From IMG/VR virus record IMGVR_UViG_2878480445_000013: DNA of 64,000 nt. The stretch is one strand, 5' to 3'. The position numbers and the translations under genes are program-made. The notes beneath the pieces are model-generated. The model saw only the letters and a program-made list of their open reading frames with translations, made no database searches and was not told the DNA's origin. Position 1 is the first letter of the stretch, and each line of letters opens with the position of its first letter. Shown here piece by piece: positions 9,727 through 55,418 of the stretch. This DNA is from a virus (lineage: Duplodnaviria > Heunggongvirae > Uroviricota > Caudoviricetes).

Positions 9727-9810
9727 CTTGTTCTCTCCTTTCCGCCCATCTGCTTTTCTCTTCGGGCAGTCACATATTCCCTCTACTGCGTGATATTATC
9801 AAGTAAATTC

Positions 9811-9860
9811 GGTGCAGAAAGACGGAGAATAATCCACCCGATTATTGTCCTATCTGCACC
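9811..9860. other. 50-bp imperfect palindrome, candidate attP (or attL/attR) site for the adjacent serine recombinases
   Basis: Sequence is GGTGCAGAaagacGGAGAATAATCcacccGATTATTGTCCtaTCTGCACC. The outer 8-bp arms are perfect and the inner 11-bp arms have 1 mismatch. Size and quasi-symmetry match serine-integrase att sites. It lies just upstream of recombinase 3. Confidence 0.35.
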
Positions 9861-38017: not shown

Positions 38018-38232
38018 TAAGCCTTATCCCCCTTTTCCAGTTCCGGCAGACCGGCAAGGCTGGTACCGAGGGACGCAACACCCGCCACGATCACTGCACT
38101 GCCAACTGCCATCCAGTCCACAGTTCCGCCAGGCATCTGGGTCACGACCAGAGCCGCGCCGGTCTGGAACATCGTCTTTGCAGCACGGATGCCGGCTGCC
38201 TTCCACCATTCTGCACTCATCAGATACTTCAT
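38017..38232 (-). CDS. small membrane protein, LL-H holin-like (putative)
   Basis: MKYLMSAEWWKAAGIRAAKTMFQTGAALVVTQMPGGTVDWMAVGSAVIVAGVASLGTSLAGLPELEKGDKA has two predicted TM helices and resembles Holin_LLH proteins. It lies between the portal and large terminase genes. Confidence 0.4.
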   Translation of the reverse strand: MKYLMSAEWWKAAGIRAAKTMFQTGAALVVTQMPGGTVDWMAVGSAVIVAGVASLGTSLAGLPELEKGDKA

Positions 38233-38256
38233 TGTGTTTTCCTCCAAATCTTCATA

Positions 38257-39885
38257 TCAAAAAACGATCATGTCACGTTCGTCATAGACGCTTCCCTGCT
38301 GCTGTCCTTCGTTTCGGATGCAGCGGTCCAGTGCCATGATCGCAGCGACGATACCATCGATCTTCTCCGGCGATTTTGCCTTTGTCGGCTTGATATTGCC
38401 TGCCGGGTCGGTATCCACGACCACATTCCCCGCCATCCATGCCATGACCGGGTTGCCGCCGTGAGTAATACGCCCTTCCATCAGGAGCTTGTAGAACTCT
38501 TTGGTAGGCGGGCTCATATCTTTAAAGCCCTGACCGAAAGGCACGACCGTAAATCCCATCCCCTCAAGGTTCTGGGTCATCTGCACCGCACCCCATCGGT
38601 CAAAGGCAATCTCCAGAATGTGATAGGTCTTGCCCAGCTCCTCAATGACTTTTTCGATAAATCCGTAGTGGATGACATTGCCCTCGGTCGCCATCAGGTA
38701 GCCCTGCTGATACCAGACATCATACGGAACGGATGCCCTGCGCACACGCTGGGGGATCGTATCCTCCGGTATCCAGAAAAACGGAAGCATGATGTACTTC
38801 TCCTCTGGAACTCTGGGCGGGAACATCAGCACAAAAGCCGTGATGTCTCCAGTGCTGGACAAGTCCAGTCCTCCATAACAGTCACGGCCTTTAAGTGCTT
38901 CCATATCGATTGGCTGATTGCCGAGGTCATAGATGTGTTCCGGGATAAACCGGGTCAGCGAGGACACCCACATGTTCAGACGAAGCTGCTTGAACACATT
39001 CTCCTCTGCCGGGTTATCCAGTGCTTCCTGATATGCATCCCGGACACGCTGGATCTGAATGGTCTGCCCCAATGAGGGATTTGCCTTATACCAGTTGGCT
39101 TCATCATGCCAGTCATCCTCATCTGTCAGTCCATAGACCACAGGATAAAAGGTGTGGTCGATCTTACGTCCAGCCAGCAGGTCAAGGGCTTTCATGTGGA
39201 GCTCGTAGCAGATGCTCTCCTTATCCGTACCGGCCGTGGTGATCAGGAAGAACAACGGCTGCTCACGGGCATCACCGGAACCTTTGGTAAGGACATCGTA
39301 GAGTTTTCGGTTTGGCTGGGCATGAACCTCATCCAGCACCAGACCTGACACGTTCAAACCGTGCTTCGTACCAACTTCGGCAGACAGAACCTGATAAAAT
39401 CCTGCGTTCCCGTAGTTCACGATGCGCTTGGTGGCTGCCATGATCTTGCACCGTTTCAAAAGTGCCGGGGTCATCTGCACCATCTGGTGGGCAACATCAA
39501 AAACAATGGATGCCTGCTGGCGGTCAGCCGCCGCACCATAGACTTCGGCAGATGGCTCATTATCGGCAAAAAGCAGATACAAGGCCACCGCAGCGGCAAG
39601 TTCGGACTTGCCGTTCTTCTTACCTATTTCGACATAAGCCGTGCGAAACTGACGTTTTCCCTTTTCATCCACGATGCCGAACACATCCCGGATGATCTGC
39701 TCCTGCCAAGGAAGCAGCCAGAACCGCTTGCCCGCCCACTTGCCTTTGGTATGACGCAGGTTTTCGATAAAAGTCACTGCCCGGTCTGCTTTTGCGGCAT
39801 CGTAATGGCAGGTCGGAAGCATGAACCGGCTGGGTTTGTAGTCCTTCAGTTTCGGATAGTTTTGGGGTCTGCACTCTGCCATCAA
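38257..39885 (-). CDS. terL: terminase large subunit
   Basis: 542-aa intact ORF. Walker A-like VEIGKKNGKSELAAAVALY, an ATPase domain and a C-terminal nuclease domain. Typical Terminase_1 architecture. Confidence 0.85.
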   Translation of the reverse strand: MMAECRPQNYPKLKDYKPSRFMLPTCHYDAAKADRAVTFIENLRHTKGKWAGKRFWLLPWQEQIIRDVFGIVDEKGKRQFRTAYVEIGKKNGKSELAAAVALYLLFADNEPSAEVYGAAADRQQASIVFDVAHQMVQMTPALLKRCKIMAATKRIVNYGNAGFYQVLSAEVGTKHGLNVSGLVLDEVHAQPNRKLYDVLTKGSGDAREQPLFFLITTAGTDKESICYELHMKALDLLAGRKIDHTFYPVVYGLTDEDDWHDEANWYKANPSLGQTIQIQRVRDAYQEALDNPAEENVFKQLRLNMWVSSLTRFIPEHIYDLGNQPIDMEALKGRDCYGGLDLSSTGDITAFVLMFPPRVPEEKYIMLPFFWIPEDTIPQRVRRASVPYDVWYQQGYLMATEGNVIHYGFIEKVIEELGKTYHILEIAFDRWGAVQMTQNLEGMGFTVVPFGQGFKDMSPPTKEFYKLLMEGRITHGGNPVMAWMAGNVVVDTDPAGNIKPTKAKSPEKIDGIVAAIMALDRCIRNEGQQQGSVYDERDMIVF

Positions 39886-40364
39886 CTTCCACCTCCTCCC
39901 AGCAGATTCTCCATCTCATCAGCTGCATCCGCAGGACCGCCGTCCGAAGCAATGATCCGGCTTCGGGAGGACGGGGTCAGACCGAACTGCTCTGCAAACT
40001 TGTTCATGATCTTCAGATAGGTCTGGGCGATGGAAACCTGCGGCACCTGCTGCCAGTACCCAGATGGGGTCTTGACAATGGTGCCGTGCTGGGTGATAAA
40101 TTCCTCAGCCTCTTTCCATCGGGCATACGCCTGACAGTAACCAGCGAAAGCAGCCATATCCACTTCGGTCAGGATGCCGATGGCTTCCATCTGCTTTGCA
40201 AGTCTGCGCCACTCTTTCTTTGCTTCCGGCTCCAGCCACTTCGGACAGGCCGGTGCTTTCTTGTTGGGCTTCGGTTCGCTGGTGTTCAGCGGATGCTTGC
40301 CCGGATTACCTTCCAGTTCCTTCATGGCGGTCGGCTTTGGTTTTCTGCCTCTGGTAGCCATTGG
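39882..40364 (-). CDS. terS: terminase small subunit, P27 family
   Basis: MPMATRGRKPKPTAMKELEGNPGKHPLNTSEPKP...AFAGYCQAYARWKEAEEFITQHGTIVKTPSGYWQQ is the P27-family signature. The track ORF is over-extended upstream (232 aa). Confidence 0.8.
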   Translation of the reverse strand, partial: PMATRGRKPKPTAMKELEGNPGKHPLNTSEPKPNKKAPACPKWLEPEAKKEWRRLAKQMEAIGILTEVDMAAFAGYCQAYARWKEAEEFITQHGTIVKTPSGYWQQVPQVSIAQTYLKIMNKFAEQFGLTPSSRSRIIASDGGPADAADEMENLLGGGGS

Positions 40365-40552
40365 CATCTCCTCCTTTCTGCAAAAATGGGTAAAGAAAAA
40401 GGACCTCCAAAGAAGTCCTCGAAATATCATTTTCCTAAACAGGAAACTTTTCTGTATAACTAACAAATAGTTTCCCATTTCGGCAACTTTATATAAAACA
40501 CATCGGATACGAGGCACAGCCCCTTTTCGGGGCGTGTACCTTTCGGGTGCTG

Positions 40553-40929
40553 TTAGGCGTTGGGGTTGGCTTCCTTCCAAGCCTCGTATTCATCGACCAG
40601 CTCCGCTTCCTCGATGACCTGCCAGACGCTGCAGAAGCGGCTTCTCTGCTGCTCGATCTCCGCTTCCGTCCAGTCTTCCGGCTTGCGGCTCATGTCGTGG
40701 TAGGCATCCATCTCCGCTTTCGTCCGGAAGAAAAGAATCTGCTTCAGCTTCAGCGTTTCCTCGTTATTCCGCAGGCTGTACCGCCTGTCTTCTGCCGCCC
40801 TGCAAAGGCTTCCGAGATCGTTGCAGCTGAGGGTCATGTCCTGCTTGAAGGCGATCTCGATGCCGATCAGCTTCTTCTCGGTGTCAGCTTCCTGAATGTT
40901 CTTAAGGTAGGTTTTTGCTTTGTTCGTCA
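40553..40929 (-). CDS. hypothetical protein (first cassette gene of the small-gene array)
   Basis: Start MTNKAKTYLKNIQEADTEKKLIGIEIAF... at ATG 40929. Preceded by promoter-leader repeat copy 1. Confidence 0.5.
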
Positions 40930-40942
40930 TGGTCTGTATCCT

Positions 40943-41034
40943 CCGTGTGTTTTGTTTTCCGTAGGGCTTTTCCCTTCGTTGTGACTGTATATTACCGTCA
41001 CTGCCCGGACATAGCAAGCGGCTATGCTGCACGA
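40943..41034 (-). promoter_or_regulatory. promoter-leader repeat copy 1
   Basis: Minus-strand consensus: GATCGTGTACTTTAGCCGCTTGATAGT-(N)-TGACGGTAATATACAGC..ACCGAAAGGGGAAAAC..GGAGG-ATG. It has -35 TTGATA, a 17-nt spacer and -10 TAATAT. Plus-strand landmarks are tatattaccgtca and tagcaagcggcta. Confidence 0.55.
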
Positions 41035-41129
41035 TCATACACACCTCTTTTTGTCGGATTTATGTGTATTTCCACACTGGAAGAATCCGCCACTACGAGC
41101 AAAAGCCCCCGAAGGAGCTCTGCCCTTTT

Positions 41130-41414
41130 TCAGTGTGCGTTCTTGATGCACCACTCGATCGCGTGACCGGCATCCGTGTAGGTCTCATCGGAAATCTTCA
41201 GAAGCTCCAGTCGGCACTCAATCGGTGACCAGCCTTCCTCTGGGTCTTCCACAAATCCGTATACCGCTCCCTCCAGCATGCCGTTCCAGTTCATCTGGGC
41301 AACCAAAACCCGGTCGCCGAACTGCATGATGCTGTCGTAGCAAGGTCTGAGTCGGTCGTAGAAACTCTCAATGCTGATGTTGTTTTCTGGGAAATTAATC
41401 AAATGCTTTTTCAT
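41130..41414 (-). CDS. hypothetical protein (94 aa)
   Basis: Intact ORF MKKHLINFPENNISIESFYDRLRPCYDSI... behind repeat copy 2. Confidence 0.5.
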   Translation of the reverse strand: MKKHLINFPENNISIESFYDRLRPCYDSIMQFGDRVLVAQMNWNGMLEGAVYGFVEDPEEGWSPIECRLELLKISDETYTDAGHAIEWCIKNAH

Positions 41415-41429
41415 GGTGAATTCCTCCGT

Positions 41430-41520
41430 GTTTTCGTTTTTCCCTTGGGGCTTTCCCCTTTCGGTATGTGCATATTACCGTCAGATGCAAAGGATAGCAA
41501 GCGGCTAAAGTACACGATCT
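41430..41520 (-). promoter_or_regulatory. promoter-leader repeat copy 2
   Basis: Plus strand reads ttcccctttcggtatgtgcatattaccgtcagatgcaaaggatagcaagcggctaaagtacacgatc. Confidence 0.55.
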
Positions 41521-41549
41521 TCCGCCCGGAATACCAGGCAGAATGTACA

Positions 41550-41756
41550 TCACTCTGCGTCCTGCTCCATGAGTTTCACTATGGTGTCGTAGAAGAACTG
41601 CGGGTCATATGCCAGCGGCTCCCGTCCGGCTTCCTTATCCATCCTGATCTGGTCTTCCACCATATCCTCGGCAGCCTCCAGCGTGAAGGCATCCTTATCG
41701 CTGTCATCCATGTGGTTGTAGATTTCCACGATGACATCCATCATCCGTTCTTCCAT
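41550..41756 (-). CDS. hypothetical acidic protein (68 aa from ATG 41756)
   Basis: MEERMMDVIVEIYNHMDDSDKDAFTLEAAEDMVEDQIRMDKEAGREPLAYDPQFFYDTIVKLMEQDAE. The upstream part of the track ORF is an alternative-start extension. Confidence 0.4.
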   Translation of the reverse strand: MEERMMDVIVEIYNHMDDSDKDAFTLEAAEDMVEDQIRMDKEAGREPLAYDPQFFYDTIVKLMEQDAE

Positions 41757-41879
41757 GTGTGCTTTCCCTTCCTCCACGCCGCCACATCTGCCCCTGTCTG
41801 GGGCGTTGTCGGTTCCTTCGGATTGTTTTGCCACCCGTGGCACAAGCCCCTGTGTGGGGCTGTGTCGGGGGCTGTCGGT

Positions 41880-42071
41880 TTATCTGTTCATCCGTCCCAG
41901 CAGGTAGGCTTCCTCCATTGTTTTCTGGATGCCCCAGACCGGAACCTCAATGAAGTCCTCGCTGTCATTGTTGCGGGCTTCGAGGTCGCCCCGACTGTCT
42001 ACCGCTGCCATCAGGCGCTTGGCGATCTCCAGCAGGGCTTTTTCTTCTTCCTTGGTAATGTTCTTCTTCAT
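41880..42071 (-). CDS. hypothetical protein (63 aa)
   Basis: MKKNITKEEEKALLEIAKRLMAAVDSRGDLEARNNDSEDFIEVPVWGIQKTMEEAYLLGRMNR behind repeat copy 3. Confidence 0.45.
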   Translation of the reverse strand: MKKNITKEEEKALLEIAKRLMAAVDSRGDLEARNNDSEDFIEVPVWGIQKTMEEAYLLGRMNR

Positions 42072-42084
42072 GGTGGTTTCCTCC

Positions 42085-42165
42085 GTTTTTCTTGGTTTTC
42101 CGTTTCGGTATGTGCATATTACCGTCTATGTCACACACTATCAAGCGGCCATACTACACAAAGAT
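42085..42165 (-). promoter_or_regulatory. promoter-leader repeat copy 3
   Basis: Plus strand reads ttttccgtttcggtatgtgcatattaccgtctatgtcacacactatcaagcggccatactacac. Confidence 0.5.
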
Positions 42166-42242
42166 AGCCGTCCGGAACTGTGCGTATTACGGCAGGAGAA
42201 AAGGGCCGCCGTTTCCGGCAAGCCCCACGTGTTTCTCAGGCT

Positions 42243-42696
42243 TAGTAGTCTTCTTCGTCCTCGTAATCTTCCTCTTCGCCCCAGTCATCTTCCTCTTCAT
42301 CCCAGCTGTCATCCTGGTCTTCTTCCTCATCCTTGAAATCCCACATATCTTCGGTCGGCTGGTTTCTAAGGTCTGGGTTCTGCTCGACATAGTCGGCAAC
42401 TGCTCCGCAAAGGATGTCCAGAACCTTTTCATAGGCTTCCTCGCTGTAGACTGCCCAGGCATCCGCAGTCAGCTTTGCGATTTTGTCGTTGCCCTTGACT
42501 CCAAGGAACCGCCCTGCAGGGTTGCAGTTTCCTTGCCGTAGCCGATGCCCAGCTGGTCGCCGTCGTTGTAAAAGCGGTATCCGATGCGGCTCATTGCCCG
42601 TACCAGCTCTCCTGCGAGGCTGTCTGCCTTGCCCGTCTCCGGTACCAGTTCCTTGAAAAGTTTATTGATGCGGTCTTCGTTCTTCGTCATTGTCAT
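42243..42696 (-). CDS. hypothetical protein with poly-acidic C-terminus; frame break near 42530
   Basis: ORF 42469..42747 (MTMTKNEDRINKLFKELVPETGKADSLAGELVRAMSRIGYRFYNDGDQLGIGYGKETA...) continues in the next frame as ...GVKGNDKIAKLTADAWAVYSEEAYEKVLDILCGAVADYVEQNPDLRNQPTEDMWDFKDEEEDQDDSWDEEEDDWGEEEDYEDEEDY* to a stop at about 42243. Confidence 0.5.
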
Positions 42697-42699
42697 ATC

Positions 42700-42785
42700 C
42701 TCCGTTTTTATTGTTTTCCCCTTTCGGTGACTATATATTACCGTCACTCTGGGGCACTATCAAGCGGCTAAACTACACGATCATC
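42700..42785 (-). promoter_or_regulatory. promoter-leader repeat copy 4
   Basis: Plus strand reads ttttcccctttcggtgactatatattaccgtcactctggggcactatcaagcggctaaactacacgatc. Confidence 0.55.
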
Positions 42786-42892
42786 AAACTCTGTAATTGT
42801 CATATTTATGTGCTTTTCATGCCATTTTTCGGAAGACCGACACGAGCAAAAGGCTGGTCATTTCCAGCCCCTTGCGCCTGTCGGTCTTGCCT

Positions 42893-43153
42893 TTAGCGGA
42901 TGATTTCGAGGTAGCTTATGTTACCCCAGCAGTCCGTTCCCTTGAAGCGGATGTGCTTGTCGTTTTCCCTGTCGAGGGTGAATTTCCGCAAGAGCTTCAT
43001 CTTTTGGATGCGGTTCAGAAGGTCCTTGCCGTTCTTCGCATCCTCAACGGCATCCCTGATCTCGACCGCTGCGCTGTCGCTTCCGTACCAGAGGTTGCTG
43101 AATGCCTCCGGAATTCCGTTTGCAAGGTAAAGGTTGATTTTTGTGTAGGTCAT
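42893..43153 (-). CDS. hypothetical protein (86 aa)
   Basis: MTYTKINLYLANGIPEAFSNLWYGSDSAAVEIRDAVEDAKNGKDLLNRIQKMKLLRKF... Translationally coupled to the upstream gene 43169..43375. Confidence 0.45.
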   Translation of the reverse strand: MTYTKINLYLANGIPEAFSNLWYGSDSAAVEIRDAVEDAKNGKDLLNRIQKMKLLRKFTLDRENDKHIRFKGTDCWGNISYLEIIR

Positions 43154-43168
43154 TGTATTTTCCTCCTC

Positions 43169-43375
43169 TCAGAATGTCATCGTTTCCAGAATCTCATCCA
43201 TGCCTGTCTCCCAGTCGTGGCGGCCAAGTTTGATTTTGCTGTACATCTCTGCGCTGTCCGGCTCATCGAAAAGCCGAAAGCATTCTCTTGCCAGCTCCTC
43301 GCTGGTGTGCTGCTGGATTTCATCCGGCTGTCCATCCAGCCGTGTAAATGTGATCTCGTAAGTGTAGCGTTCCAT
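43169..43375 (-). CDS. hypothetical protein (68 aa)
   Basis: MERYTYEITFTRLDGQPDEIQQHTSEELARECFRLFDEPDSAEMYSKIKLGRHDWETGMDEILETMTF behind repeat copy 5. Confidence 0.45.
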   Translation of the reverse strand: MERYTYEITFTRLDGQPDEIQQHTSEELARECFRLFDEPDSAEMYSKIKLGRHDWETGMDEILETMTF

Positions 43376-43377
43376 GT

Positions 43378-43455
43378 TCTTTGCCCCTTTCGTTTTGGTA
43401 GCTGTATATTACCGTCACTGCCGGATACTATCAAGCGGCTAAAGTACACGATCAT
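43378..43455 (-). promoter_or_regulatory. promoter-leader repeat copy 5 (best-defined: -35 TTGATA = rc of 43429-43434; -10 TAATAT = rc of 43406-43411; 17-nt spacer)
   Basis: Plus strand reads cgttttggtagctgtatattaccgtcactgccggatactatcaagcggctaaagtacacgatc. Confidence 0.6.
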
Positions 43456-43514
43456 CTGCACCCTGATCTAGTGGATTTATGTGTTTATCTGGGGAGGTTT
43501 CCCTCCCCGTTTTC

Positions 43515-43691
43515 TTAGCTGAACATCTCTGCCGTGTCATCATCGATCCAAAGGTGCATGCCGTCTGCTTCCATGATCGCGTGGTCTTCATGAACCTCGG
43601 TGATAATCCCTTCCCGGCTTCCGCTTCCGTCGAATTCGTCCCAGTGCCATGTTGTCTTTCTTCCCTTTTTCCATGTTCTCCAATCAGCCAT
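43515..43691 (-). CDS. hypothetical protein (59 aa from ATG 43691)
   Basis: MADWRTWKKGRKTTWHWDEFDGSGSREGIITEVHEDHAIMEADGMHLWIDDDTAEMFS. Followed by a terminator hairpin GGGGAGGTTTCCCTCCCC at about 43488-43505. Confidence 0.4.
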   Translation of the reverse strand: MADWRTWKKGRKTTWHWDEFDGSGSREGIITEVHEDHAIMEADGMHLWIDDDTAEMFS

Positions 43692-43704
43692 TCTGCTGTC
43701 CTCC

Positions 43705-43790
43705 TTTGCTTTTTGTAGCTGTATATTACCGTCACCGCCCTGTGATAGCAAGGCCATAAAACGTCATATTATCACCGATCTTCACCCTTC
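43705..43790 (-). promoter_or_regulatory. promoter-leader repeat copy 6 (diverged)
   Basis: Plus strand reads ttttgtagctgtatattaccgtcaccgccctgtgatagcaaggccataaaacgtcatattatcaccgatc. Confidence 0.45.
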
Positions 43791-43900
43791 ATGTTTGGTA
43801 CATATATGATCCCTGATTGACTTGCTATATATGTGTTTCTGCGGCATTATACACACAACGAAAGCAAAGAAAACCAAACCAAAAACGGAGGACAAAAACC

Positions 43901-44152
43901 ATGAAAAAGACCATTACAGAAGTTGAAACCGCAATCGAAAACCGCATCGCAGAGCTTGAAGAAGAATACGAGCTGGACATTTACGACCGCAACGACATCC
44001 GGGAAGAAGAATACCAGAAAGCCGGATGGCGGCACGACCCTTTCCCAGAGGAGCTTGAGGAAGAAGACGAAGAAGAGGAAGAGGATTGGCACTACCACAG
44101 CATGGAGGAACGACTGAACGAGGTCGGTATGAGCATGAGGGATTTCTTCTAA
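43901..44152 (+). CDS. hypothetical acidic protein (83 aa) on the opposite strand
   Basis: MKKTITEVETAIENRIAELEEEYELDIYDRNDIREEEYQKAGWRHDPFPEELEEEDEEEEEDWHYHSMEERLNEVGMSMRDFF. The leader aaaaacggaggacaaaaaccATG matches the repeat leader motif but on the plus strand. A hairpin terminator follows at about 44165-44200. Confidence 0.5.
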   Translation: MKKTITEVETAIENRIAELEEEYELDIYDRNDIREEEYQKAGWRHDPFPEELEEEDEEEEEDWHYHSMEERLNEVGMSMRDFF

Positions 44153-44351
44153 GGAATCCCCCAGAGGCTCCCCAGCAGAGGCTGGGGCTCTGCCTCGTAT
44201 CCCCGGTTTTGGTTTGGTATGATACACAAAACCGCTGCCAGATGTTTGTGTACATTATGGCGGCGGTTCTCCTTGCTATTGTTGCTTTCCAGAGGTAATA
44301 TACAGTAAACTGGAAGGGGGGTCTCATTCTTTTGAGGCCCCCATTTTCCGT

Positions 44352-44543
44352 CTAATCGGCTGCGCCCTGTATTGCCTGATGCATCACCCTGCGGTTATGC
44401 GCTCTGGCTTTCTTTTTCAGGTCCCTTTTCCATCTGCGAATGGTTACTGCCTTGCAGTGATTTCTCGACCATTCGTATTCATCCAGAATGTATCTGCCGC
44501 CGTGTTCCCTCTCACCATAAGCCGGCATCTTTCTGTGTCCCAT
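44352..44543 (-). CDS. small basic protein (63 aa), hypothetical
   Basis: MGHRKMPAYGEREHGGRYILDEYEWSRNHCKAVTIRRWKRDLKKKARAHNRRVMHQAIQGAAD. An RBS-like GGAGGAGCC sits before the ATG. Confidence 0.4.
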   Translation of the reverse strand: MGHRKMPAYGEREHGGRYILDEYEWSRNHCKAVTIRRWKRDLKKKARAHNRRVMHQAIQGAAD

Positions 44544-44616
44544 AGGCTCCTCCTGTTAAACCAAGCCCTCCCGGTCTTTTCTGGCCGAGAGGGTATTTTT
44601 TTCTGATTGTGGTATC

Positions 44617-44988
44617 TTATTCCGGCTTCGTTCCGTCATCCATCTGGATGACTGCCATCTGCCCGAACATGCTGACGAATGCCTCCGGCACCCAGAAGCG
44701 TTCCCTGAATTTCCGGATCAGGTCTTGGGGCAACTCTGCGAAATCTTCCTCTCCCAGTCCACAGATGAAGAAGTTTCCCTTGATGGGCTGCTCCAGCTCC
44801 GGGATGTATCTGCTGAATGACTTCTCGGTGAACAGCCCGTTGTCATCGGTGACCAGGGCAGCGCGTTCTTCCCAAGGGTATGTGGCTGTGATGCAGTCGC
44901 AGTCGAGGATGCAGTAGAACTCTTCCAGGGAGTTTTCGATGTCCACCACCTGCGGATGCTCCATCGGTTTGATCAGAAGGACTTTCAT
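44617..44988 (-). CDS. DUF3846-family protein
   Basis: MKVLLIKPMEHPQVVDIENSLEEFYCILDCDCITATYPWEERAALVTDDNGLFTEKSF...KGNFFICGLGEEDFAELPQD matches the DUF3846 pattern seen in phages and conjugative elements (MKVLVIEPGK...EV.EI...LE..Q..VGG.IE..YPF.D..VALICNEEGK...FFICG). Confidence 0.55.
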   Translation of the reverse strand: MKVLLIKPMEHPQVVDIENSLEEFYCILDCDCITATYPWEERAALVTDDNGLFTEKSFSRYIPELEQPIKGNFFICGLGEEDFAELPQDLIRKFRERFWVPEAFVSMFGQMAVIQMDDGTKPE

Positions 44989-45452
44989 TCGACCCAGCCC
45001 CCTTTCACGATTGCCCAGTCTGCAAGATGCATCTTCTGCTGTCCGCCCCATGCAATGTCCTCTAACGCTTCCTCAGTTCCGCAGCGGTTGCAAATCAGAA
45101 TGTCCGCCCTTCGGCTGAGTGCCTGCTGCTGATGGTCGTAGCAGTCAGGATTTGCTCCGCACCTGGGGCAACGTGGGCCGGTCTGTCGCGTTTTTCCAAG
45201 CCGGTCGAGCGACACCTTGACCTCGGCTTCTGAAGCCACACGGTGGCAACTGTCCGCACCGTAGGAAATGTTCAGATGGCTTCCGGTGTCCCAGCTCACT
45301 AAGATGTTTCCGGCATCATCAACCCCGTTGCAGGTTCCCTGCGTTCCGATGGGCGGTGCCTGCCTGTCATCCATCTCATCGAGGATGATCCGGCATCCGA
45401 CCGGGAATTCTGCCCGAAGGCGTTTGACTGTCTTTTCGTCTGCGAAATTCAT
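44985..45452 (-). CDS. DUF4314-domain protein with C-terminal CxxC zinc ribbon
   Basis: EFPVGCRIILDEMDDRQAPPIGTQGTCNGVDDAGNILVSWDTGSHLNISYGADS is DUF4314-like. The C-terminus has CPRCGANPDC...CNRCG. Confidence 0.5.
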   Translation of the reverse strand: MNFADEKTVKRLRAEFPVGCRIILDEMDDRQAPPIGTQGTCNGVDDAGNILVSWDTGSHLNISYGADSCHRVASEAEVKVSLDRLGKTRQTGPRCPRCGANPDCYDHQQQALSRRADILICNRCGTEEALEDIAWGGQQKMHLADWAIVKGGWVE

Positions 45453-45928
45453 GCCTGCACCTCCTCGATCATCCGCTGGGCGGCGTCCTTATCCATGCAT
45501 TCTTTCAGCGCACCTTCGAGGATGTGCATCGGGAAGTGGAATGCCTTGTAGCCGTCATGCAGGACTTTGTAGTAATACCGGCTCGGTGCGCGGTGTCCGA
45601 AGTCGTTCTCCATGATGTAGACCATTGCGGTCACCCTCTCCGGCTCTGCCCCTTCCCGGAGCAGTTCGAGGTTCAGGTCTTCCTTGCGGTAGTAGTTCGG
45701 GTAGCCCTCATAGAGGTCGAGGTTTTCTTCGTCCCTTTCCGAGATTTCCCACACCAGAACCGGCGTGTTCTTCTTCGGGTTCGGTGCGATGGTGGCGCAG
45801 CCCCGGAATAAAAGCTCCCAGCCGGTCAGCACCGCCTGCCCTGCAATTTTTGCATCCGGGCATCGGTCTGACATCTGCTCCACCGACAGGTTGCTGCCGT
45901 AGGCGATGTAATATTTCTTGTTCTTCAT
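45449..45928 (-). CDS. gamma-glutamyl cyclotransferase-like (AIG2/GGCT family) protein 1
   Basis: From ATG 45928: MKNKKYYIAYGSNLSVEQMSDRCPDAKIAGQAVLTGWELLFRG.. carries the YxAYGSNL..M..R.P motif of AIG2/GGACT enzymes. RBS GGAGAG. Confidence 0.65.
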   Translation of the reverse strand: MKNKKYYIAYGSNLSVEQMSDRCPDAKIAGQAVLTGWELLFRGCATIAPNPKKNTPVLVWEISERDEENLDLYEGYPNYYRKEDLNLELLREGAEPERVTAMVYIMENDFGHRAPSRYYYKVLHDGYKAFHFPMHILEGALKECMDKDAAQRMIEEVQA

Positions 45929-45934
45929 TTGAAT

Positions 45935-46020
45935 CTCTCCCTTCGGTTTTCTCCGCTCTTGTCTGGCGGTATGGTATATATCACTCTTTTGCCCTGATTT
46001 ATCAAGGCCGATGAGCATCA
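45935..46020 (-). promoter_or_regulatory. promoter-leader repeat copy 7 (diverged variant)
   Basis: Plus strand reads ggcggtatggtatatatcactcttttgccctgatttatcaaggccgatgagcatcatatactgcac. It shares the tatatatcactc and tatcaag blocks with the copy at 49185-49275. Confidence 0.4.
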
Positions 46021-46058
46021 TATACTGCACAATGTTTTTTCCCTGTGATCGTGTACTC

Positions 46059-46580
46059 TTACATCATCTGCCGCTTCTTCAGATACCGGACGGCTTCCGT
46101 CCTTCCGATACTGGCGGAAAGCCCACGCTTCAGTGTGTCCAGTGGAAATTCCCAGTCGCTGTATCCGCCGCGCAGCAGTTCAAAATACTCGGCATCCGGG
46201 CAGCCAAGCCGCCGGTCCTCGTGCATCACATAAGCGATGCAAGGCTTTGCCTTTTTCATGCGGTTCCCGTTCAGGTTCCAGACCGGAAGCTGGAACTGCT
46301 TCTTATAGTAGTATTTTGGGCAGCCCTCGTATCGGTCCAGCAGGAGCTCATCGTATTCTGAGAGTTTCCAGACCACTGCCGGTACGCTTTCATTGGCATC
46401 CTGCTCAATGGTGGCATAGCAACCGGTCTTGCTCTTTTTGAACAGGAGCCGGTAGCCCTTGATCTCGGTCGTGCCGACCACCACAGCGTAGGGGCATCTC
46501 TTTCCCATCCGCTCCATGTCGAGGTTGCTTCCGTAGGCAAGGTAATATCTGGATGGGACTCGGCTGATCAATTCAAACAT
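46059..46580 (-). CDS. gamma-glutamyl cyclotransferase-like (AIG2/GGCT family) protein 2
   Basis: From ATG 46580: MFELISRVPSRYYLAYGSNLDMERMGKRCPYAVVVGTTEIKGYRLLFK... is a paralog of protein 1. The track ORF start at 46643 is a TTG alternative start. Confidence 0.65.
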   Translation of the reverse strand: MFELISRVPSRYYLAYGSNLDMERMGKRCPYAVVVGTTEIKGYRLLFKKSKTGCYATIEQDANESVPAVVWKLSEYDELLLDRYEGCPKYYYKKQFQLPVWNLNGNRMKKAKPCIAYVMHEDRRLGCPDAEYFELLRGGYSDWEFPLDTLKRGLSASIGRTEAVRYLKKRQMM

Positions 46581-46809
46581 CCGCCTCACCGTCCTCCCTG
46601 CCAGTGAATTCCACGCCCTGGAAATCATCTGTCCCAAGCTCAATCTGGCTGTCCTGCCACCAGTCCTCTGCCACTCGCTGGGCTTCCTCCACGGTCGGCT
46701 CTTTCATTTCGGATTCATAAATGGTCACCGTTCTCTGGTAGGTCTCGGTGATGGTCACCTTAAAGGTCCTGCCGCCCGGTGTGCTTTCATTTTTTAACGT
46801 GCTTTTCAT
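46573..46809 (-). CDS. hypothetical protein (78 aa)
   Basis: MKSTLKNESTPGGRTFKVTITETYQRTVTIYESEMKEPTVEEAQRVAEDWWQDSQIELGTDDFQGVEFTGREDGEADV. AGGAGG lies 9 nt before the ATG at 46809. It sits between the amidoligase and GGCT gene 2. Confidence 0.5.
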   Translation of the reverse strand: MKSTLKNESTPGGRTFKVTITETYQRTVTIYESEMKEPTVEEAQRVAEDWWQDSQIELGTDDFQGVEFTGREDGEADV

Positions 46810-46876
46810 AAACCTGCACCTCCTTCTACCGCCTCAAGGGCGGTTGCCCGCCCAAAAGGTGCCCGTGCATCCTGGC

Positions 46877-47812
46877 TTATTTGTTTCGCCAGGATGCGTT
46901 GCCCTCCATGTTCCGCAGAAGGATCTCCCTTGCCGTTGCAAATTCATCCCCGATGAATCCCAGCCTCAGCATCCAGCACCGCATCGCGTACTTTTCGTTG
47001 TCGGTCTGCTGGGGCTTCGGGCTTGCCGTTCTGACCATCTTGGCAAGCTGGCTCATTGCGAGGCAAAGCTGGATGTAGGCTTTCATCTCTCCAGCGTGCA
47101 GTCCGTTGCGCTTTCCGTCCGCTGGGTCTGCAAATTGGAAAAGGCGGAATTCAATGGTTCCTTTTGTAAAGGTGGCATGAAGGTTCAGCATATGGTACCG
47201 GCTTGAATTGTAGTGGGCATTCCGGTTTTCCCAGCTGGAACCGTTGCCTTCGTACCAGATGTCTTCCAGCTTGCGCATGGTGGTCGGCTTCTCGCGGTTC
47301 AGCCGGTCGAGGAAGCGGTGGTCGACTACCCGGCAATATTGTCCGGTGCGCCCTGCGTCGATCCGGATGGCTCTGCCGATCTGCTGTTCGTGTGCCGCCA
47401 TGATGTTCACAAGGTTGCGGATGGTCTTTGCGGTGTGGTCGCCTTTGCCGATGTGGATGTGGACCCCACATCCGCGACTTGGGCCGCTCTTTGCGCCTGC
47501 CTTGCGGAGCAGCCGGATGATTTCCTGCAGGGGTTCGATGTCATCGTAGGTGAGGATCGGGGTGACCAGTTCGCATTTTTCTGCGTCCGGTCCGTAGATG
47601 CTCACATCCCTCTGGAATTTCCAAACCCTGCCCAGCTGGTCCTTGCAAGCCCAGCTGTAATATCCGTACTCGCCGGCGGCGTTCCATGCTCTGGTTCCGA
47701 AGTACTCGGCAACCTTTCTTGCCGCTTTTTCTCTGGTGATGTTGTTCATCTCGATCTCAACTCCGATGGTCTGGTTCTTCATGGCTTCAATCTGCTCTCT
47801 TGTTTTATCGTT
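46877..47812 (-). CDS. amidoligase (Amidoligase_2 / glutamine-synthetase-like COOH-NH2 ligase family)
   Basis: From MNDKTREQIEAMKNQTIGVEIEMNNITREKAARKVAEYFG...WKFQRDVSI...ELVTPILTYDD...GCGVHIHIG.. The IGVEIE, xDxSI, ELVSP and HVHI motifs match the phage/plasmid amidoligase family defined by Iyer and Aravind. Behind repeat copy 8. Confidence 0.65.
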   Translation of the reverse strand, partial: NDKTREQIEAMKNQTIGVEIEMNNITREKAARKVAEYFGTRAWNAAGEYGYYSWACKDQLGRVWKFQRDVSIYGPDAEKCELVTPILTYDDIEPLQEIIRLLRKAGAKSGPSRGCGVHIHIGKGDHTAKTIRNLVNIMAAHEQQIGRAIRIDAGRTGQYCRVVDHRFLDRLNREKPTTMRKLEDIWYEGNGSSWENRNAHYNSSRYHMLNLHATFTKGTIEFRLFQFADPADGKRNGLHAGEMKAYIQLCLAMSQLAKMVRTASPKPQQTDNEKYAMRCWMLRLGFIGDEFATAREILLRNMEGNASWRNK

Positions 47813-47834
47813 CATGGTATGTTCTCCTTTGTTT

Positions 47835-47905
47835 TTTCCTTGTTTTCCCTTTCGGTATGTGCATATTACCGTCAGGTGCGGATAATAGCAAGGATATAAA
47901 AGAAC
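47835..47905 (-). promoter_or_regulatory. promoter-leader repeat copy 8 (drives the amidoligase gene)
   Basis: Plus strand reads ttccctttcggtatgtgcatattaccgtcaggtgcggataatagcaaggatataaaag. Confidence 0.5.
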
Positions 47906-47929
47906 ATATATTCGACAAATATGAGCCAG

Positions 47930-47995
47930 AATGATCGTGTACATTTCTGTGGTTTATCCGCTTGATAATGTACATTTTCAGAGTTAATATCGGTA
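47930..47995 (+). promoter_or_regulatory. inverted (plus-strand) copy of the promoter element, back-to-back with copy 8
   Basis: GATCGTGTACatttctgtggtttatCCGCTTGATAatgtacattttcagagTTAATATcgg has -35 TTGATA and -10 TAATAT 17 nt apart, firing rightwards, antisense to the 3' end of the 48048..49174 gene. The plus-strand ORF 47962..48372 looks non-coding. Confidence 0.45.
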
Positions 47996-48047
47996 CAATG
48001 GAAGAGGATCTCGCATTTTTTCCGGCCCACATTGGGGGCTTGGGAGC

Positions 48048-49174
48048 TTACGCTCCCGCCTCCAGCATCTGCGCCGTGTCTGCCCCACCGCCGGGCTGTG
48101 TCGGCTCGGCATCTGCTGATGCGATTGTTTCCCCAGCGGAGGCACTACCTTCCTGTGCTGCCTGTTTCGCGGCTTTCAGGGCATCCCGCTTTGCCTTTTC
48201 CCTTGCAAGGAACTTCTGTGCTTCCTCATCCGTGCGGAAAGCCGCATGGCCGGAAAGGTTCTCCATCAAGATCTTTCTGGTCTGCTTGAAGTCCGGGCCA
48301 TTCATGCCAAGGCGCAGAAGCCAAGTTCGCAAAGCGTATTTCTCATTTGAATCGTTCACCTCTTTTGCCTGAATCCGCTTCTGGCTGATAGCCTGCTGAT
48401 TCATCAGGATCGCAAGGTGTCCGAATGCAGTCAGGTGGTCATAATCCGGTGCCGTCGGGAAACCTGTAAAGGTAACTTTCTCATCTGTGATCGTCAAGCC
48501 TTCCAGGGAAGCACCATGCTGTTCTTCATATTCTTTGACCGCATGAATGAAATTTGCTACCGCATAAGTGCAGCTGTCATCTTTCAAGGCATCCACCAAC
48601 CCCTTATCGGCAAGGAAAATGCCGTCCGTTGCCTTGCTGATGAGTTCCCCTCTGCTGTAGATCAGATTGACCAGGTTGCGAAGCGATACGCCGTTATGCT
48701 GACTGATTGGAAAAGAAAAATCCGCATCCAGAGGGATTGCTTCTTCTGACACAGGCTGTTCCGTGCCTTCTTCCGATGGGATTTGCTCTGCACTCTCCAT
48801 TTCGGATTCCCCATCTTCCTCGGCTTCTTCTGGATCTCCGTCACAGGTCTCCTGCCCATTTGGATGTACTGCCGGGATCATCTGGACACCCTCGGCAAGG
48901 TCTACCGCAGGCTGTTCGTCTGCAGTTTCCTGCAAAGTCTCTGCATCCACATCCTCGCCGCCGCGGATCAGGCCTTCATTCATCAGCGTAGTCAGCAATT
49001 CCAGATCTGCATTTTCCGCCTCAACCAGCAGGTTGCCATCCCGGTCAATGGTATAATCTCCGATGTCATACGCATACCGAGGCGCCTTGGTGTAGTAGGA
49101 TGGATGCCTGTCAACTCCTCCATCCGCTTTGCCAGTGTTTTGCGCTCCTCTACATTTAGTTCAAATTTCAACAT
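48048..49174 (-). CDS. acidic hypothetical protein sharing a C-terminal helical module with the amidoligase; frame break near 49095
   Basis: ORF 48992..49174 (MLKFELNVEERKTLAKRMEELTG...) joins ORF 48048..48998 in the adjacent frame (...YAYDIGDYTIDRDGNLLVEAENADLELLTTLMNEGL...). C-terminus ...NEKYALRTWLLRLGMNGPDFKQTRKILMENLSGHAAFR parallels amidoligase ...NEKYAMRCWMLRLGFIGDEFATAREILLRNMEGNASWR. A long D/E-rich linker sits in the middle. Confidence 0.5.
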
Positions 49175-49184
49175 AATTCATCGC

Positions 49185-49275
49185 TCCTTTTTCATTATTT
49201 TGTTTTTGTACATCCCGATGTTTTTTTCGGTAGCACATATATCACTCTGAACCGGGCAAATAGCAAGTCCATTTC
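49185..49275 (-). promoter_or_regulatory. promoter-leader repeat copy 9 (diverged variant)
   Basis: Plus strand reads cggtagcacatatatcactctgaaccgggcaaatagcaagtccatttccgaataatc. Confidence 0.4.
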
Positions 49276-49397
49276 CGAATAATCTTTATGTTCGACCCTT
49301 TACACAATGAGGTGCAAACTCATTTGTGTAAATAGCCCCGATATGTAAGCCGCCATATCACTGGGTGACTGTCTACCTAGTAATATAGCGGGCCAGT

Positions 49398-51522
49398 TTA
49401 TTCTTCCAGACCTGCGCACCATGCGATGCCGGCCAGAACAAAAAATGCGTTGGCTAAGCATATGCCGTTGCCCCAGATACGGTACTCTGCCGAATCCGTA
49501 TACGGGTCAGCCAGCCATTTTCGGATCTGCTTCTCCGTTTTCGGCTTCTTGGCATGGGTCACGATCTTACGGTGCGTTTCAAACACCTCCGTCCAGAACG
49601 CCAGCTCTTCTTCGGTCGGATCTTCCGTTCCGAGATCTCTGCACCACCAGTCCGGGAAACCCTGCAGTCTGGCACACTCGGTCGGTGTCAAACGGCGGAC
49701 GGTATAAGTCACAGGTGCGGGCTGTGCTTCCGGGTTGTCGATGACCAGACGGTCATTAAAAGCATCCTGCCCGTTGAAGCCGCTGGGATGCGCCCCTGTT
49801 GCCACCGTTCCCATGACACCCTCGTTCAGATGCGGTGCCGGTGCGATGGTGGTCGGGTCTTTGTAATCCCGTGCCATCAGGGTCGGTGCGACTTCTTTTG
49901 CCACCTGCATATAGGAGCCGGTGGTCATGGCATACACATCCTCCGGTGCGCAGACTGCATGACGGTCAGTGGCATCCAGTGTAAAGCAGACATCCTCATT
50001 GACGCCATCGCCCTGCGGACCGTTCTCATCCTTGCGGCCGATCATGTTGCCCTGCAAGACGAAGGTCTGCTGCTTCATCCCTAGCTCTGCTGCAAGTGCT
50101 GCTGACTTCTCTCCCAGATCCCGGACTTCATCCCTCTGATTCTGTGTAAAAGCAACCGGCTCTACTACACAGATGCCGCCCTGGTTACAGGTCGGGTCTC
50201 CACCACTGCGGTCAAGAGTCCGGGATGTATCTGCTTCATAAAAACCGCTATGCGGATTATCGGACATCATGGAATGACTGGCTTTGGAGCAGACACCGTA
50301 GCATTTCGGAACGAACAGCGTCTGGTCGTTGTTGCAGCCGAGGGTGGCTGACTTTTCTTCCTGCCAGATGGCTCCCTTGCCGCCGCCCTCACATCCGGAG
50401 CGGATCTTCAATGTGACTGCCGGGGAGTTCTCAACATCTTTCACCGGGCTTTCCACCGACTTTTCAACACCATCCATGACCAGTGGAACATTGCCGCCAC
50501 CCGTACCACACCGGCTGGTCAGGGTCTGCACCTTGCCATCCTCGGAAATCTTCACCCGGCTGTCTGCAGGATGGTTTTCCAAAGCAATAGCGGCAGGCAC
50601 AACACCAGCCCGGAGAGTTGGTGACCGTTCCTCTTCATACCCGATGCTTCTTGCGTTGGCAGAGTGTTCCGTGCAGAAACCGGCTGCTTCCAGAACACAC
50701 GGAGGATGGTGTGCTTCTGCTCGAAGCGTTGATGTCGCTTCCTTTGTCACATCCATTCTCTCCCCACCCTGATCATTCAGGCAGATTCTTCCTGTGCCGC
50801 CTGCCTTTCCAGTGCTGCTTTCAACACAGGTGGCAGCTCTTTGCCACGCACGGAAGCTCTCCGCAGAATACCGAGACACGCCTCGGACTCAAATAATACT
50901 TTTGGGGCACTCTGTCTGCAAAATCTGCGACAAGGAAGATTCGTTTTCTACGCTGGGGCACGCCCCACCACTGTGCATCAAGGACTCGATACGCGACACT
51001 CCATCCGTCTCCCAAATAGTAGTCAGCATCCGGCCATCCCTTTTTCTCAGGCGCAGGCACCTGGGCGGACGGTTCTTTAACACCGATGACGGCTTCGAGA
51101 ACTGCCTTGAAGTCCTGTCCTTTGTTTGAGGAGAAGGCCCCTGGCACATTCTCCCACACGATAAATCTTGGTTTTTCTCCATTGGTCTTACACCTCATTT
51201 CCTTCACGATTCGGATTGCTTCGTAAAACAGGCTGGACCGTGAACCATCCAGACCGTCCCGCTTACCGGCGATAGACATATCCTGACAGGGACTTCCAAA
51301 AGTAATGATGTCAACAGGCGGCAAGTCCGCACCGCTGATGGCAGACACATCACCATAGTGCCTCACCCACGGCAGGCGCTTGGTCGTGACTCGGATGGCA
51401 AAGGGCTCCACCTCGCTGCTCCACAGCGGAGTGATCTGCCCGGTCAAAAGTCCACCCAACGGGAAACCCCCGGAACCATCAAAGAGGCTGCCGAGTGTCA
51501 GCTGTTTATTCTCCATCGGCAT
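49398..51522 (-). CDS. DNA (cytosine-5)-methyltransferase, long TRD; at least two frame breaks near 50800-50900
   Basis: ORF 50821..51522 has motif I LTLGSLFDGSGGF, motif IV GSPCQDMS, ENV and QRRKRIFLVA. The third frame continues YYLSPR-CLGILRRASVRGKELPPVLKAALE. ORF 49398..50879 ends with motif X TVRRLTPTECARLQGFPDWW. Confidence 0.75.
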
Positions 51523-55387: not shown

Positions 55388-55418
55388 AGAGCTTATCCTC
55401 GGATAGGCTCTTTTTTAT
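55388..55418 (+). terminator. rho-independent terminator of the HigBA operon (hairpin + T6), convergent with the metK end
   Basis: GAGAGCTTATCCTCGGATAGGCTCTTTTTTATTT. Confidence 0.55.

Follow-up and report, generated by a model that had tools for sequence, protein, structure and literature searches.

Predicted promoter-leader cassettes in the accessory island of a temperate phage of gut Clostridia

IMG/VR virus record IMGVR_UViG_2878480445_000013 (Caudoviricetes) was analysed as one stretch of 64,000 nucleotides (nt), here called the window. After its DNA-methylase genes and before its packaging genes, in the direction of transcription (49280-40940), an element of about 85-100 bp recurs directly in front of small genes. 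What is this element, and what keeps so many versions of it in one genome? The answer that we favour, and hold to be probable, is that the copies are promoter-leader cassettes of the sigma-A type that would define independent units in a hyperplastic accessory island, that are probably co-regulated and that occasionally act as crossover points. The sequence itself shows that the element is repeated, where it stands with respect to genes, that its conservation is box-specific, that it is restricted to the island, and that crossovers occurred at two junctions.

Copies and anatomy of the element

We searched the window by nhmmer with a 90-nt profile built from 224 unique related instances. Seven strong minus-strand copies were recovered (profile E about 1e-16 to 1e-23), all within 40.9-47.9 kb, and beyond these nothing in the whole 64 kb scored below 1e-3. 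The 11-mer GACGGTAATAT occurs exactly seven times, always on the minus strand and between 40989 and 47873; allowing up to one mismatch gives 8 sites (7 exact) against 0.49 expected, a count reached in 0 of 100 shuffles. An earlier interpretation made from the letters of the window (the sequence-only reading) had listed about ten near-identical copies upstream of at least nine minus-strand genes. Seven copies are indeed strong, whereas the rest are weak variants, and near-identity does not hold: pairwise identity among the seven averages 59% (range 45-69%) over 86 nt and is about 45% outside the boxes described below. The strong copies and the genes that they serve are as follows.

c1, 40961..41045, minus strand: -35 TTGCTA at 41012-41017, -10 TAATAT at 40989-40994, exact GACGGTAATAT, E=5e-20; serves gene 40553-40930
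c2, 41444..41528, minus strand: -35 at 41495-41500, -10 at 41472-41477, E=8e-23; serves an Nmad4 gene (Pfam) at 41130-41414
c3, 42088..42170, minus strand: -35 TTGATA at 42139-42144, -10 at 42116-42121, E=2e-18, picked up by a consensus promoter scan; serves a DUF6900 gene (Pfam) at 41880-42071 and then gene 41550-41756, which has no copy of its own
c4, 42708..42787, minus strand: -35 at 42758-42763, -10 at 42735-42740, E=8e-21; serves an acidic-tail gene at about 42240-42690, frameshifted here, with an intact homologue of 149 amino acids (aa) in related locus L099
c5, 43380..43462, minus strand: -35 at 43429-43434, -10 at 43406-43411, E=9e-22; serves genes 43169-43375 and 42893-43153, the latter with its own promoter copy in other phages
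c6, 43696..43778, minus strand: -35 at 43746-43751, -10 at 43723-43728, E=9e-16, without the GATCGTGTAC box; serves gene 43515-43691 and stands back to back with plus-strand copy i2
c7, 47836..47920, minus strand: -35 at 47886-47891, -10 at 47863-47868, E=4e-19; serves amidoligase 46877-47815, then DpnD/PcfM 46573-46809 and GGACT 46059-46580 (Pfam), and stands back to back with i1

Similarity among the copies is concentrated in fixed boxes (ATGATCGTGTAnTTTAGCCG, CTTGMTA and, after about ten variable nt, TGACGGTAATAT and ACCGAAAGGGAAAA). In gene orientation the order of elements is the ATGATCGTGTAnTTTAGCCG box, C-TTGMTA, the variable stretch, T-GACGG-TAATAT, six variable nt, ACCGAAAGGGAAAA, a GGAGG Shine-Dalgarno (SD) sequence and the ATG start codon. 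Alignment and profile bear out the consensus that had been written down for the element, and the 17-nt spacer and the -10 TAATAT are present in seven of seven strong copies; the -35 TTGATA that had been ascribed to every copy is found only in c3, c4 and c5, the remaining four carrying TTGCTA. GACGG lies directly 5' of the -10 and is invariant. From the -10 to the start codon the window copies span ~30-58 nt. The predicted leader is A-rich and U-poor, starts with ACCGAAAGG (except in c5 and c6) and leads into GGAGG, and only 5-bp dyads bracket the -10 (GTGAC..GTCAC or CGGTA..TACCG).

The upstream box ATGATCGTGTAnTTTAGCCG is found in c1-c5; c1, which also has a small AGGG/CCCT hairpin in its leader, carries it as GATCGTGCAG. 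The two strong copies without it, c6 and c7, have a TATATG..TTTTAT type instead, and both are back to back with plus-strand copies. Conservation upstream of the -35 had been taken as a sign of a UP element. Because the box is ~50% A+T and position-specific rather than A/T-rich, it is not one.

Outside the seven strong copies the window holds weaker versions, three of which had been missed (plus strand, 43802-43877 and 44242-44318; minus strand, 9751-9821). The supposed full copies at 45935-46020 and 49185-49275 score only E=0.7 and 1.0 and represent a shorter, promoter-like form (TTGMTA-16 nt-TGATAT, then ..ACCG; c8 and c9 below). The one inverted copy reported at 47930-47995 does have the upstream box, TTGATA, the 17-nt spacer and TAATAT, but it is weak and is one of three plus-strand copies.

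c8, 45978..46032, minus strand: variant promoter, TTGATA at 46000-46005, 16-nt spacer, TGATAT at 45978-45983, E=0.7; serves GGACT 45449-45928, DUF4314 44985-45452 and DUF3846 44617-44988
c9, 49239..49276, minus strand: variant promoter, TTGCTA at 49261-49266, 16-nt spacer, TGATAT at 49239-49244, E=1.0; serves a frameshifted acidic-protein gene, 48048-49174
i1, 47934..47990, plus strand, inverted: GATCGTGTAC box, -35 TTGATA at 47962-47967, 17-nt spacer, -10 TAATAT at 47985-47990, E=0.018, also picked up by the consensus promoter scan; directed into the 3' end of the acidic-protein gene
i2, 43802..43877, plus strand, inverted: -35 TTGCTA at 43822-43827, -10 CATTAT at 43845-43850, A-rich leader, GGAGG, E=0.026, also part of an inverted repeat; serves a plus-strand gene for an acidic 83-aa protein, 43901-44152
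i3, 44242..44318, plus strand, inverted: -35 at 44273-44278, -10 TAATAT at 44296-44301, E=0.003
Recombinase-gene copy, 9751..9821, minus strand: TTGATA at 9797-9802, 17-nt spacer, GAATAT at 9774-9779, E=0.003; upstream of serine recombinase 8311-9726

Downstream of i1 there is no SD and no credible open reading frame (ORF). Antisense transcription from i1 into the acidic-protein gene had been proposed; the hexamers for it are present, but i1 is kept in close relatives only, which have diverged too little to reveal selection. Within ~15 nt past i3 there is a strong terminator-like hairpin that carries a T-run, so that i3, if active, would give only a ~40-nt transcript antisense to the end of gene 44352-44543. 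This gene follows the c8 genes after a terminator-like hairpin of its own. We also noticed a decayed inverted copy (46040-46100, plus strand; GATCGTGTAC..GCCGCTTCTTC..GGACGG) that overlaps the 3' end of GGACT gene 46059-46580; c8 may therefore once have formed a back-to-back pair like c7/i1 and c6/i2.

Hairpin terminators had been proposed to separate the cassettes. Five inter-cassette hairpin sites are present, with a U-tract on the gene strand in only some of them, and a further hairpin precedes terS.

42833..42888: long hairpin between gene 42893-43153 and c4, from the inverted-repeat and terminator scans
43490-43509: inter-cassette hairpin
44317-44342: inter-cassette hairpin, the one past i3
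42206-42221: inter-cassette hairpin
41839-41864: inter-cassette hairpin
40399..40420, minus strand: terminator-like hairpin with a U-run, ~15 nt before the terS SD and ~25 nt before the likely Met

The last of these stands at the end of an A+T-rich gap of 190 nt (40365-40553) between the last cassette gene and terS, where it would insulate the late operon from the array. A GC hairpin (40515-40540) was also seen in this gap. No obvious late promoter was found in 40365-40553; is the late operon activated by antitermination, or does the gap contain a cos site?

Distribution, constraint and exchange of units

The module is present in at least 220 viral and bacterial loci. The pattern CTTGMTA-N12-GACGGTAATAT matched at least 120 stretches of IMG/VR, with up to seven copies per contig, and 103 stretches when one genome per species was scanned. 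Arrays of several copies were found in Blautia, Wujia, Acetatifactor, Clostridium fessum, Lawsonibacter, Faecalibacterium, Eubacterium and Acutalibacteraceae, and single matches in unrelated phyla come to about the number expected by chance on our own estimate (17-18 specified bases, ~1.2e12 positions). The motif scan of related phages that had been suggested as a check yielded a profile sample of 559 instances in 224 sequences, namely 223 fetched loci and the window. An SD together with an ORF of 30 aa or more follows 25-65 nt past the -10 in 504 of the 559, so the description of the element as promoter-leader modules placed where promoters should be stands.

Where in these phages does the element occur? 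Among arrays with at least three copies, some of which hold quite different cargo, 51 of 66 have a TerS/TerL homologue (59-100% identity) downstream and/or the C5 methylase gene upstream within the sequence available; the remaining 15, for which 1.8-14.3 kb of sequence each is available, show none of the searched markers. The early and replication regions of related phages (80 loci) gave one weak match and otherwise no copy. The array was not found in annotated phage and plasmid collections, 72,556 plasmids being without a match. Among phage records, faecal phage MT836278, itself an unannotated record, is 82% identical over part of the region; an 80-nt match in Pseudomonas phage Lu11 was judged to be chance. 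Because strong copies are confined to the island and no annotated phage or plasmid carries the array, the element marks one island of one phage lineage. Our search of the literature on the 11-mer and on similar arrays in temperate phages found nothing relevant.

Copies in front of homologous genes indicate where the constraint lies. Pairwise diversity of the spacer in such same-gene sets (0.31-0.61) is similar to that of third codon positions (0.24-0.62), against at most 0.10 for the -35, 0.18 for TGACGG and 0.07 for the -10. In a sample chosen independently of the motif, made up of genes that tblastn located in loci retrieved via another copy, GACGGTAATAT with no more than one mismatch stands 5' of the orthologous gene in 39/39, 35/35, 31/31, 24/24, 20/20, 41/41 and 23/30 cases, although the proteins in those sets have diverged down to 48-76% identity. 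For gene 42893-43153, only 15 of 32 orthologues are preceded by a copy of their own.

Identity outside the boxes is 45-48% between copies of the same genome and 46% between non-orthologous copies of different genomes, whereas orthologous copies are 0.52-0.95 identical, tracking genome divergence. Since copies within a genome are no more alike than non-orthologous ones between genomes, they are not homogenised, and concerted evolution within a genome, which we considered, is not seen. On this evidence the copies are old, un-homogenised and constant only in short boxes, which points to regulation rather than homology-driven shuffling as the main constraint. The comparisons point to selection, rather than recent duplication, as what keeps the boxes.

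The cargo behind these promoters is varied. Across the related loci, 379 distinct products fall into 50 cargo clusters, mostly domains of unknown function (DUFs) or unannotated proteins; the families include amidoligase, GGACT, DpnD/PcfM, DUF4314, DUF3846, DUF6900, Nmad4, acidic proteins, MetK, serine recombinase, DUF7678 and DUF7698. In the window, the c1 product, at 125 aa the most conserved cassette gene product, has no Pfam, NCBIfam or PDB match. The products of c5 (68 and 86 aa) and c6 (58 aa), the second product of c3 (68 aa) and that of the gene beyond the c8 hairpin (63 aa) are smaller still, and the c7 amidoligase is of the Amidoligase_2 family. A full copy precedes a serine-recombinase gene in 16 other loci (cargo cluster 7), and in another phage, L044, an S-adenosylmethionine (SAM) synthetase gene lies under an array promoter. 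Separately, we observed that amidoligase 46877-47815 and acidic protein 48048-48998 have a C-terminal motif in common (NEKYAMRCWMLRLGF..F...REIL and NEKYALRTWLLRLGM..F...RKIL), which suggests a common module or a partner-binding tail.

The order of the array is kept and its content varies, as the description of fast-changing accessory genes had implied. Cargo clusters run 0-6-5-1-3-4-2 here and 0-5-8-1-3-4-2, 6-8-1-32-3-4-2 or 0-15-11-48-17-20-13 in other arrays, and single units may be there or missing between neighbours that are themselves conserved, as with cluster 32 in L148, cluster 29 in L142, and gene 43169-43375, which the window has and L148 lacks. Two junctions place the exchange within promoter copies. 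L044 lacks window 47886-46009 (amidoligase, DpnD/PcfM and GGACT), a 1.9-kb deletion, and its junction promoter is a hybrid whose upstream half is c7 and whose downstream half is c8, with the crossover at CCTTG[AC]TA. L148 has an extra promoter-plus-gene unit, both flanks of which align to window 42102-42149, the c3 core. Hot spots of similarity breakpoints include c6, c7 and the 43150 junction. The proposal that the copies are a substrate for recombination therefore holds for these crossovers; it fails for frequent recombination, given the absence of homogenisation (0.48 versus 0.46). Low identity between copies indicates that the crossovers are rare short-homology events, not routine homologous exchange.

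Might the repeats themselves be recombination or mobility sites rather than promoters, resembling attC, miniature inverted-repeat transposable elements (MITE-like) or repetitive extragenic palindromes (REP-like), or else single-strand hairpin promoters or origins of the Frpo/ssi kind? Variable cargo flanked by repeats and crossovers inside the repeats would suit such a role. So would the cargo families, which resemble the accessory regions of conjugative elements: amidoligase, GGACT, DpnD/PcfM, DUF3846, DUF4314 and acidic proteins are common there. Yet single-strand DNA folding z-scores of the seven copies range from -2.95 to +0.76, with five of seven no better than shuffles, and as single strands the seven share no consistent fold. 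Terminal inverted repeats and target duplications are absent; there is no plasmid match, no within-genome homogenisation and, in the window, no detected tyrosine (integron-type) integrase, while orientation and distance to the start codon are fixed. We consider mobility sites very improbable. Integron-type cassettes were rejected by virtue of a promoter in each unit, no attC imperfect-palindrome fold, and recombinases that are only of the serine type and at least ~31 kb away. Frpo/ssi single-strand promoters were rejected on the same folding scores, the copies sharing no long imperfect hairpin.

What may read the cassettes

If the cassettes are sigma-A-type promoters, the small accessory genes would be transcribed as separate units, singly or in runs of two to four. 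Host RNA polymerase with sigma-A would start ~7 nt past TAATAT, the unstructured purine-rich leader and strong SD would allow efficient translation, and the hairpins between units, together with the terminator before terS, would lessen read-through into the late genes. GACGG and ATGATCGTGTAnTTTAGCCG would be read by one shared putative DNA-binding factor, so that the set behaves as a regulon, and the conserved boxes would occasionally provide short-homology crossover points at which promoter-plus-gene units are lost, gained or replaced. A shared trans-acting reader is suggested because positions that sigma-A does not need (GACGG and all six of TAATAT) are invariant, and common regulation is likewise implied because a dozen units of the island share one conserved promoter design. 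As the same design also precedes a recombinase gene, establishment-type or prophage-expressed timing seems indicated, rather than late expression.

Several features of the leader raise the question whether the transcribed part (ACCGAAAGGGGAAAA...) is instead an RNA element, such as a regulator-binding site, a 5' stabiliser or a translational enhancer, that is the main cause of conservation, the promoter being incidental. Predicted leaders in the wider sample have an extreme composition (46% A, 7% U), their first ~16 nt are moderately conserved, and many open with a small hairpin with a GNRA-type loop (CC-GAAA-GG, CC-GCAA-GG or CCG-AAA-CGG). The leader is nevertheless less conserved than the non-transcribed boxes, varies in length from 23 to 57 nt, has stems of only 2-3 bp and folds weakly (mean -5 kcal/mol, mean z-score about -1), and c5 and c6 do without its conserved start. 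A search of Rfam 15 found nothing in the window at gathering score, and nothing in 40500-49500 even at E up to 1. An RNA element as the main cause is in our judgement improbable.

A phage-encoded specificity factor is a less remote alternative, one that we hold to be possible though unlikely. The promoters would then be middle or late, with the factor reading GCCGCTTGMTA and/or GACGGTAATAT and the island switched on only after early expression. Boxes of 11-12 nt that are invariant beyond what sigma-A needs fit this proposal, and the early operon of L225 and its close relatives encodes a candidate, a 251-aa protein with sigma-70 region 4 (Pfam E=3e-15) and a weak NCBIfam match to 'positive control sigma-like factor'. 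The island also lies directly upstream of terS, the usual site of late activators of Gram-positive phages (RinA/ArpU/Xpf class). On the other side, the 251-aa protein matches sigma factors in region 4 only, its first 170 residues having shown nothing detectably sigma-2-like; hexamers and a spacing of 17 nt suit sigma-A; a terminator-like hairpin stands between array and terS; and promoters of this type also stand before serine-recombinase genes, whose function is not a late one.

More speculatively, the boxes could be the operator of a dedicated regulon: by reading GACGGTAATAT, the upstream box or both, a putative factor would set off some dozen accessory genes, together with the integrase, in a burst when the phage genome enters a cell; this we think doubtful. 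A link to the lysogeny switch was rejected, since the switch dyad GGAAC-N4-GTTCC from a relative's immunity region is absent from the array. To our knowledge, as judged by eye from their consensus sequences, none of the Spo0A box, cre, LexA box, sigma-F/G/B/D or extracytoplasmic-function (ECF) promoters fits the boxes either.

How far do these considerations leave sigma-A-type cassettes as the probable answer? A number of points weigh against it. Promoter activity, start sites, the sigma factor used, expression timing and the common factor are all deduced from sequence, and four of the seven strong copies (those with TTGCTA and TAATAT) score 8/12 against TTGACA/TATAAT and were missed by the consensus promoter scan. 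The invariance of GACGG and the six -10 positions beyond sigma-A needs could mean that a different specificity factor is the primary reader, and no candidate regulator has been linked to the boxes. Box conservation in the consensus and diversity tests is partly circular because the pattern used to retrieve the loci itself includes the boxes. Unit independence is uncertain because several inter-cassette hairpins have no gene-strand U-tract. Finally, similarity breakpoints also cluster at the non-promoter sites 46900, 48700 and 48950 and many loci are near-duplicates; because such counts include non-promoter sites and the loci are not independent, the crossover claim rests on the two aligned junctions.

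The prophage, known systems and significance

The window is a siphovirus-type prophage with nearly all genes on the minus strand, and its phage is a temperate HK97-like siphovirus prophage of gut Clostridia. Its landmarks, in order of transcription, are as follows.

62217-63485: SNF2 helicase, a replication gene and the first in order
56834-59286: D5/primase-polymerase, a replication gene apparently split by a frameshift in this assembly
55415-56482, minus strand: SAM synthetase, after the replication genes and before HNH proteins
51506-52801: ParB-N6/N4 methylase, after the HNH proteins
49398-51522: C5 methylase, the last gene before the array, apparently split by a frameshift in this assembly
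8311-9726, 5300-7291 and 3901-5280: three large serine-recombinase genes in tandem at the end of the prophage

On the 3' side of the array come TerS (P27 family), TerL, portal, ClpP protease and HK97-type capsid, then tail genes and endolysin. Only 8311-9726 among the three recombinases has an array-related promoter. No sigma factor was found within the 64-kb window; the sigma region-4 protein lies beyond its right end. The right-hand 12.6 kb are 100% identical to contig QUIO01000005.1 of GCA_003480145.1 (L225), which continues past the end of the window with the sigma-70 region-4 gene, then DUF7768, a PDDEXK nuclease, a single-stranded-DNA-binding protein, DNA polymerase A and DUF932. Sequence from further upstream is available in a close relative, L226 (its DUF7768 protein and that of L224 are identical). 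In its early region are genes for an ImmR-like XRE repressor with an M78 protease of the ImmA type, for a Cro-like XRE protein and for the sigma region-4 protein, which counts 251 aa from the likely Met.

Some further observations concern the prophage itself. In the immunity region of L226 (5375-5435), two dyads, GGAACAACTGTTCC and GGAACTCATGTTCC, overlap a TTGACA/TATACT promoter and fit the Firmicutes LexA-box pattern GAAC-N4-GTTC; the L226 switch could be readable by LexA besides or in place of the ImmR-like repressor. The window has a Gp49/helix-turn-helix (HigB/HigA-like) pair on the opposite, plus strand (54663-55330) and a MazF/PemK-like gene on the minus strand (59259-59828). Four genes appear to be split by frameshifts in this assembly (acidic protein 48048-49174, acidic-tail protein 42240-42690, D5 primase 56834-59286 and C5 methylase 49398-51522), through either sequencing errors or recent prophage decay; in Logan contig L224, which is 99.96% identical, the D5 gene is intact (809 aa) and the methylase is a single protein of 706 aa. 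Prophages ~95% nucleotide-identical to window 37000-48300 (L179, L211, L213 and L140/L189) are found in isolates of different families, labelled Faecalibacterium intestinale, Blautia faecis, Clostridium fessum and Blautia sp., which means either that the host range is unusually broad or that assemblies are contaminated or mislabelled. Cultivable carriers of a prophage about this similar are Blautia faecis DFI.3.66, Clostridium fessum SNUG30386 and Faecalibacterium intestinale CLA-AA-H281.

The closest known analogue is the promoter-early stem-loop (PeSL) of T4-type phages. PeSLs combine sigma-70-type early promoters with stem-loops and are repeated upstream of ORFans in hyperplastic regions; they have been shown to be strong promoters and terminators and to mediate indels and mini-circles, and their stem-loops were proposed to stop transcription of accessory genes from spilling over into virion genes (Arbiol et al. 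2010, PMC2839356; Comeau et al. 2014, PMC4122927). The cassettes described here resemble them in being many copies of a composite sigma-70/sigma-A-type promoter with SD and start codon (here from sequence evidence only), concentrated in variable regions directly 5' of small genes of mostly no known function. Indel and replacement endpoints fall within the motifs, here in L044 and L148, with other breakpoints elsewhere too, and the hairpin before terS would limit spill-over into virion genes as PeSL stem-loops would.

The differences are as clear. The phage is a temperate siphovirus of gut Clostridia (Firmicutes) rather than a lytic T4-type myovirus, and there is no sequence relationship. Upstream of the -35 stands a specific box of ~50% A+T, where PeSLs have an A/T-rich tract, and no stem-loop is consistently built in, hairpins lying 40-60 nt upstream in only some units. 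Invariant GACGG abutting the -10, back-to-back divergent pairs and a version 5' of a recombinase gene are further features of the cassettes that set them apart, and the copies are far more diverged (45-69% identity). PeSL activity and mini-circles have been demonstrated, whereas the cassettes are known as sequence.

Morons, as described for lambdoid phages and HK97, are independent promoter-gene-terminator units inserted between conserved genes of temperate phages. The units here are similar in that small accessory genes stand under a predicted promoter of their own, frequently with a hairpin after them, and occur or are missing between genes that adjoin each other in relatives. Classical morons were inserted singly and have unrelated promoters, whereas here a dozen units of one conserved design occupy one island.

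A third parallel is with the leading regions of conjugative plasmids, where anti-defence islands are reported to carry repeated Frpo-type promoters (Samuel et al. 2024, PMC11541004). Small establishment-type genes are clustered there too, each after a repeated promoter element; Frpo promoters act as hairpins in transferred single-stranded DNA, whereas the present copies look like ordinary duplex promoters. The element here is also of a phage, without plasmid match, and an anti-defence role of its cargo is putative.

The cassette logic is thus of a known kind and not a new principle. CTTGMTA-N12-GACGGTAATAT provides a compact, searchable marker of a hypervariable island in a widespread lineage of so far uncultured phages of human and animal gut Clostridia. 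The marker delimits individual cargo units and links ~50 protein families, most without known function; if the units are early establishment-type genes, they would provide a list of candidate genes through which phages of gut Firmicutes counter defences or take over the host. The promoter could also be a portable expression part for poorly tractable hosts. If virion DNA ends beside terS, the island would be last packaged and first injected, a phage counterpart of the plasmid leading-region anti-defence island, and a first-injected island, if true, could help explain the ~95% identical prophages across bacterial families (Blautia, Clostridium fessum and Faecalibacterium). The idea behind PeSLs, that cassettes are at once expression signals and crossover points, would in this way be extended from lytic T4-type phages to temperate siphoviruses.

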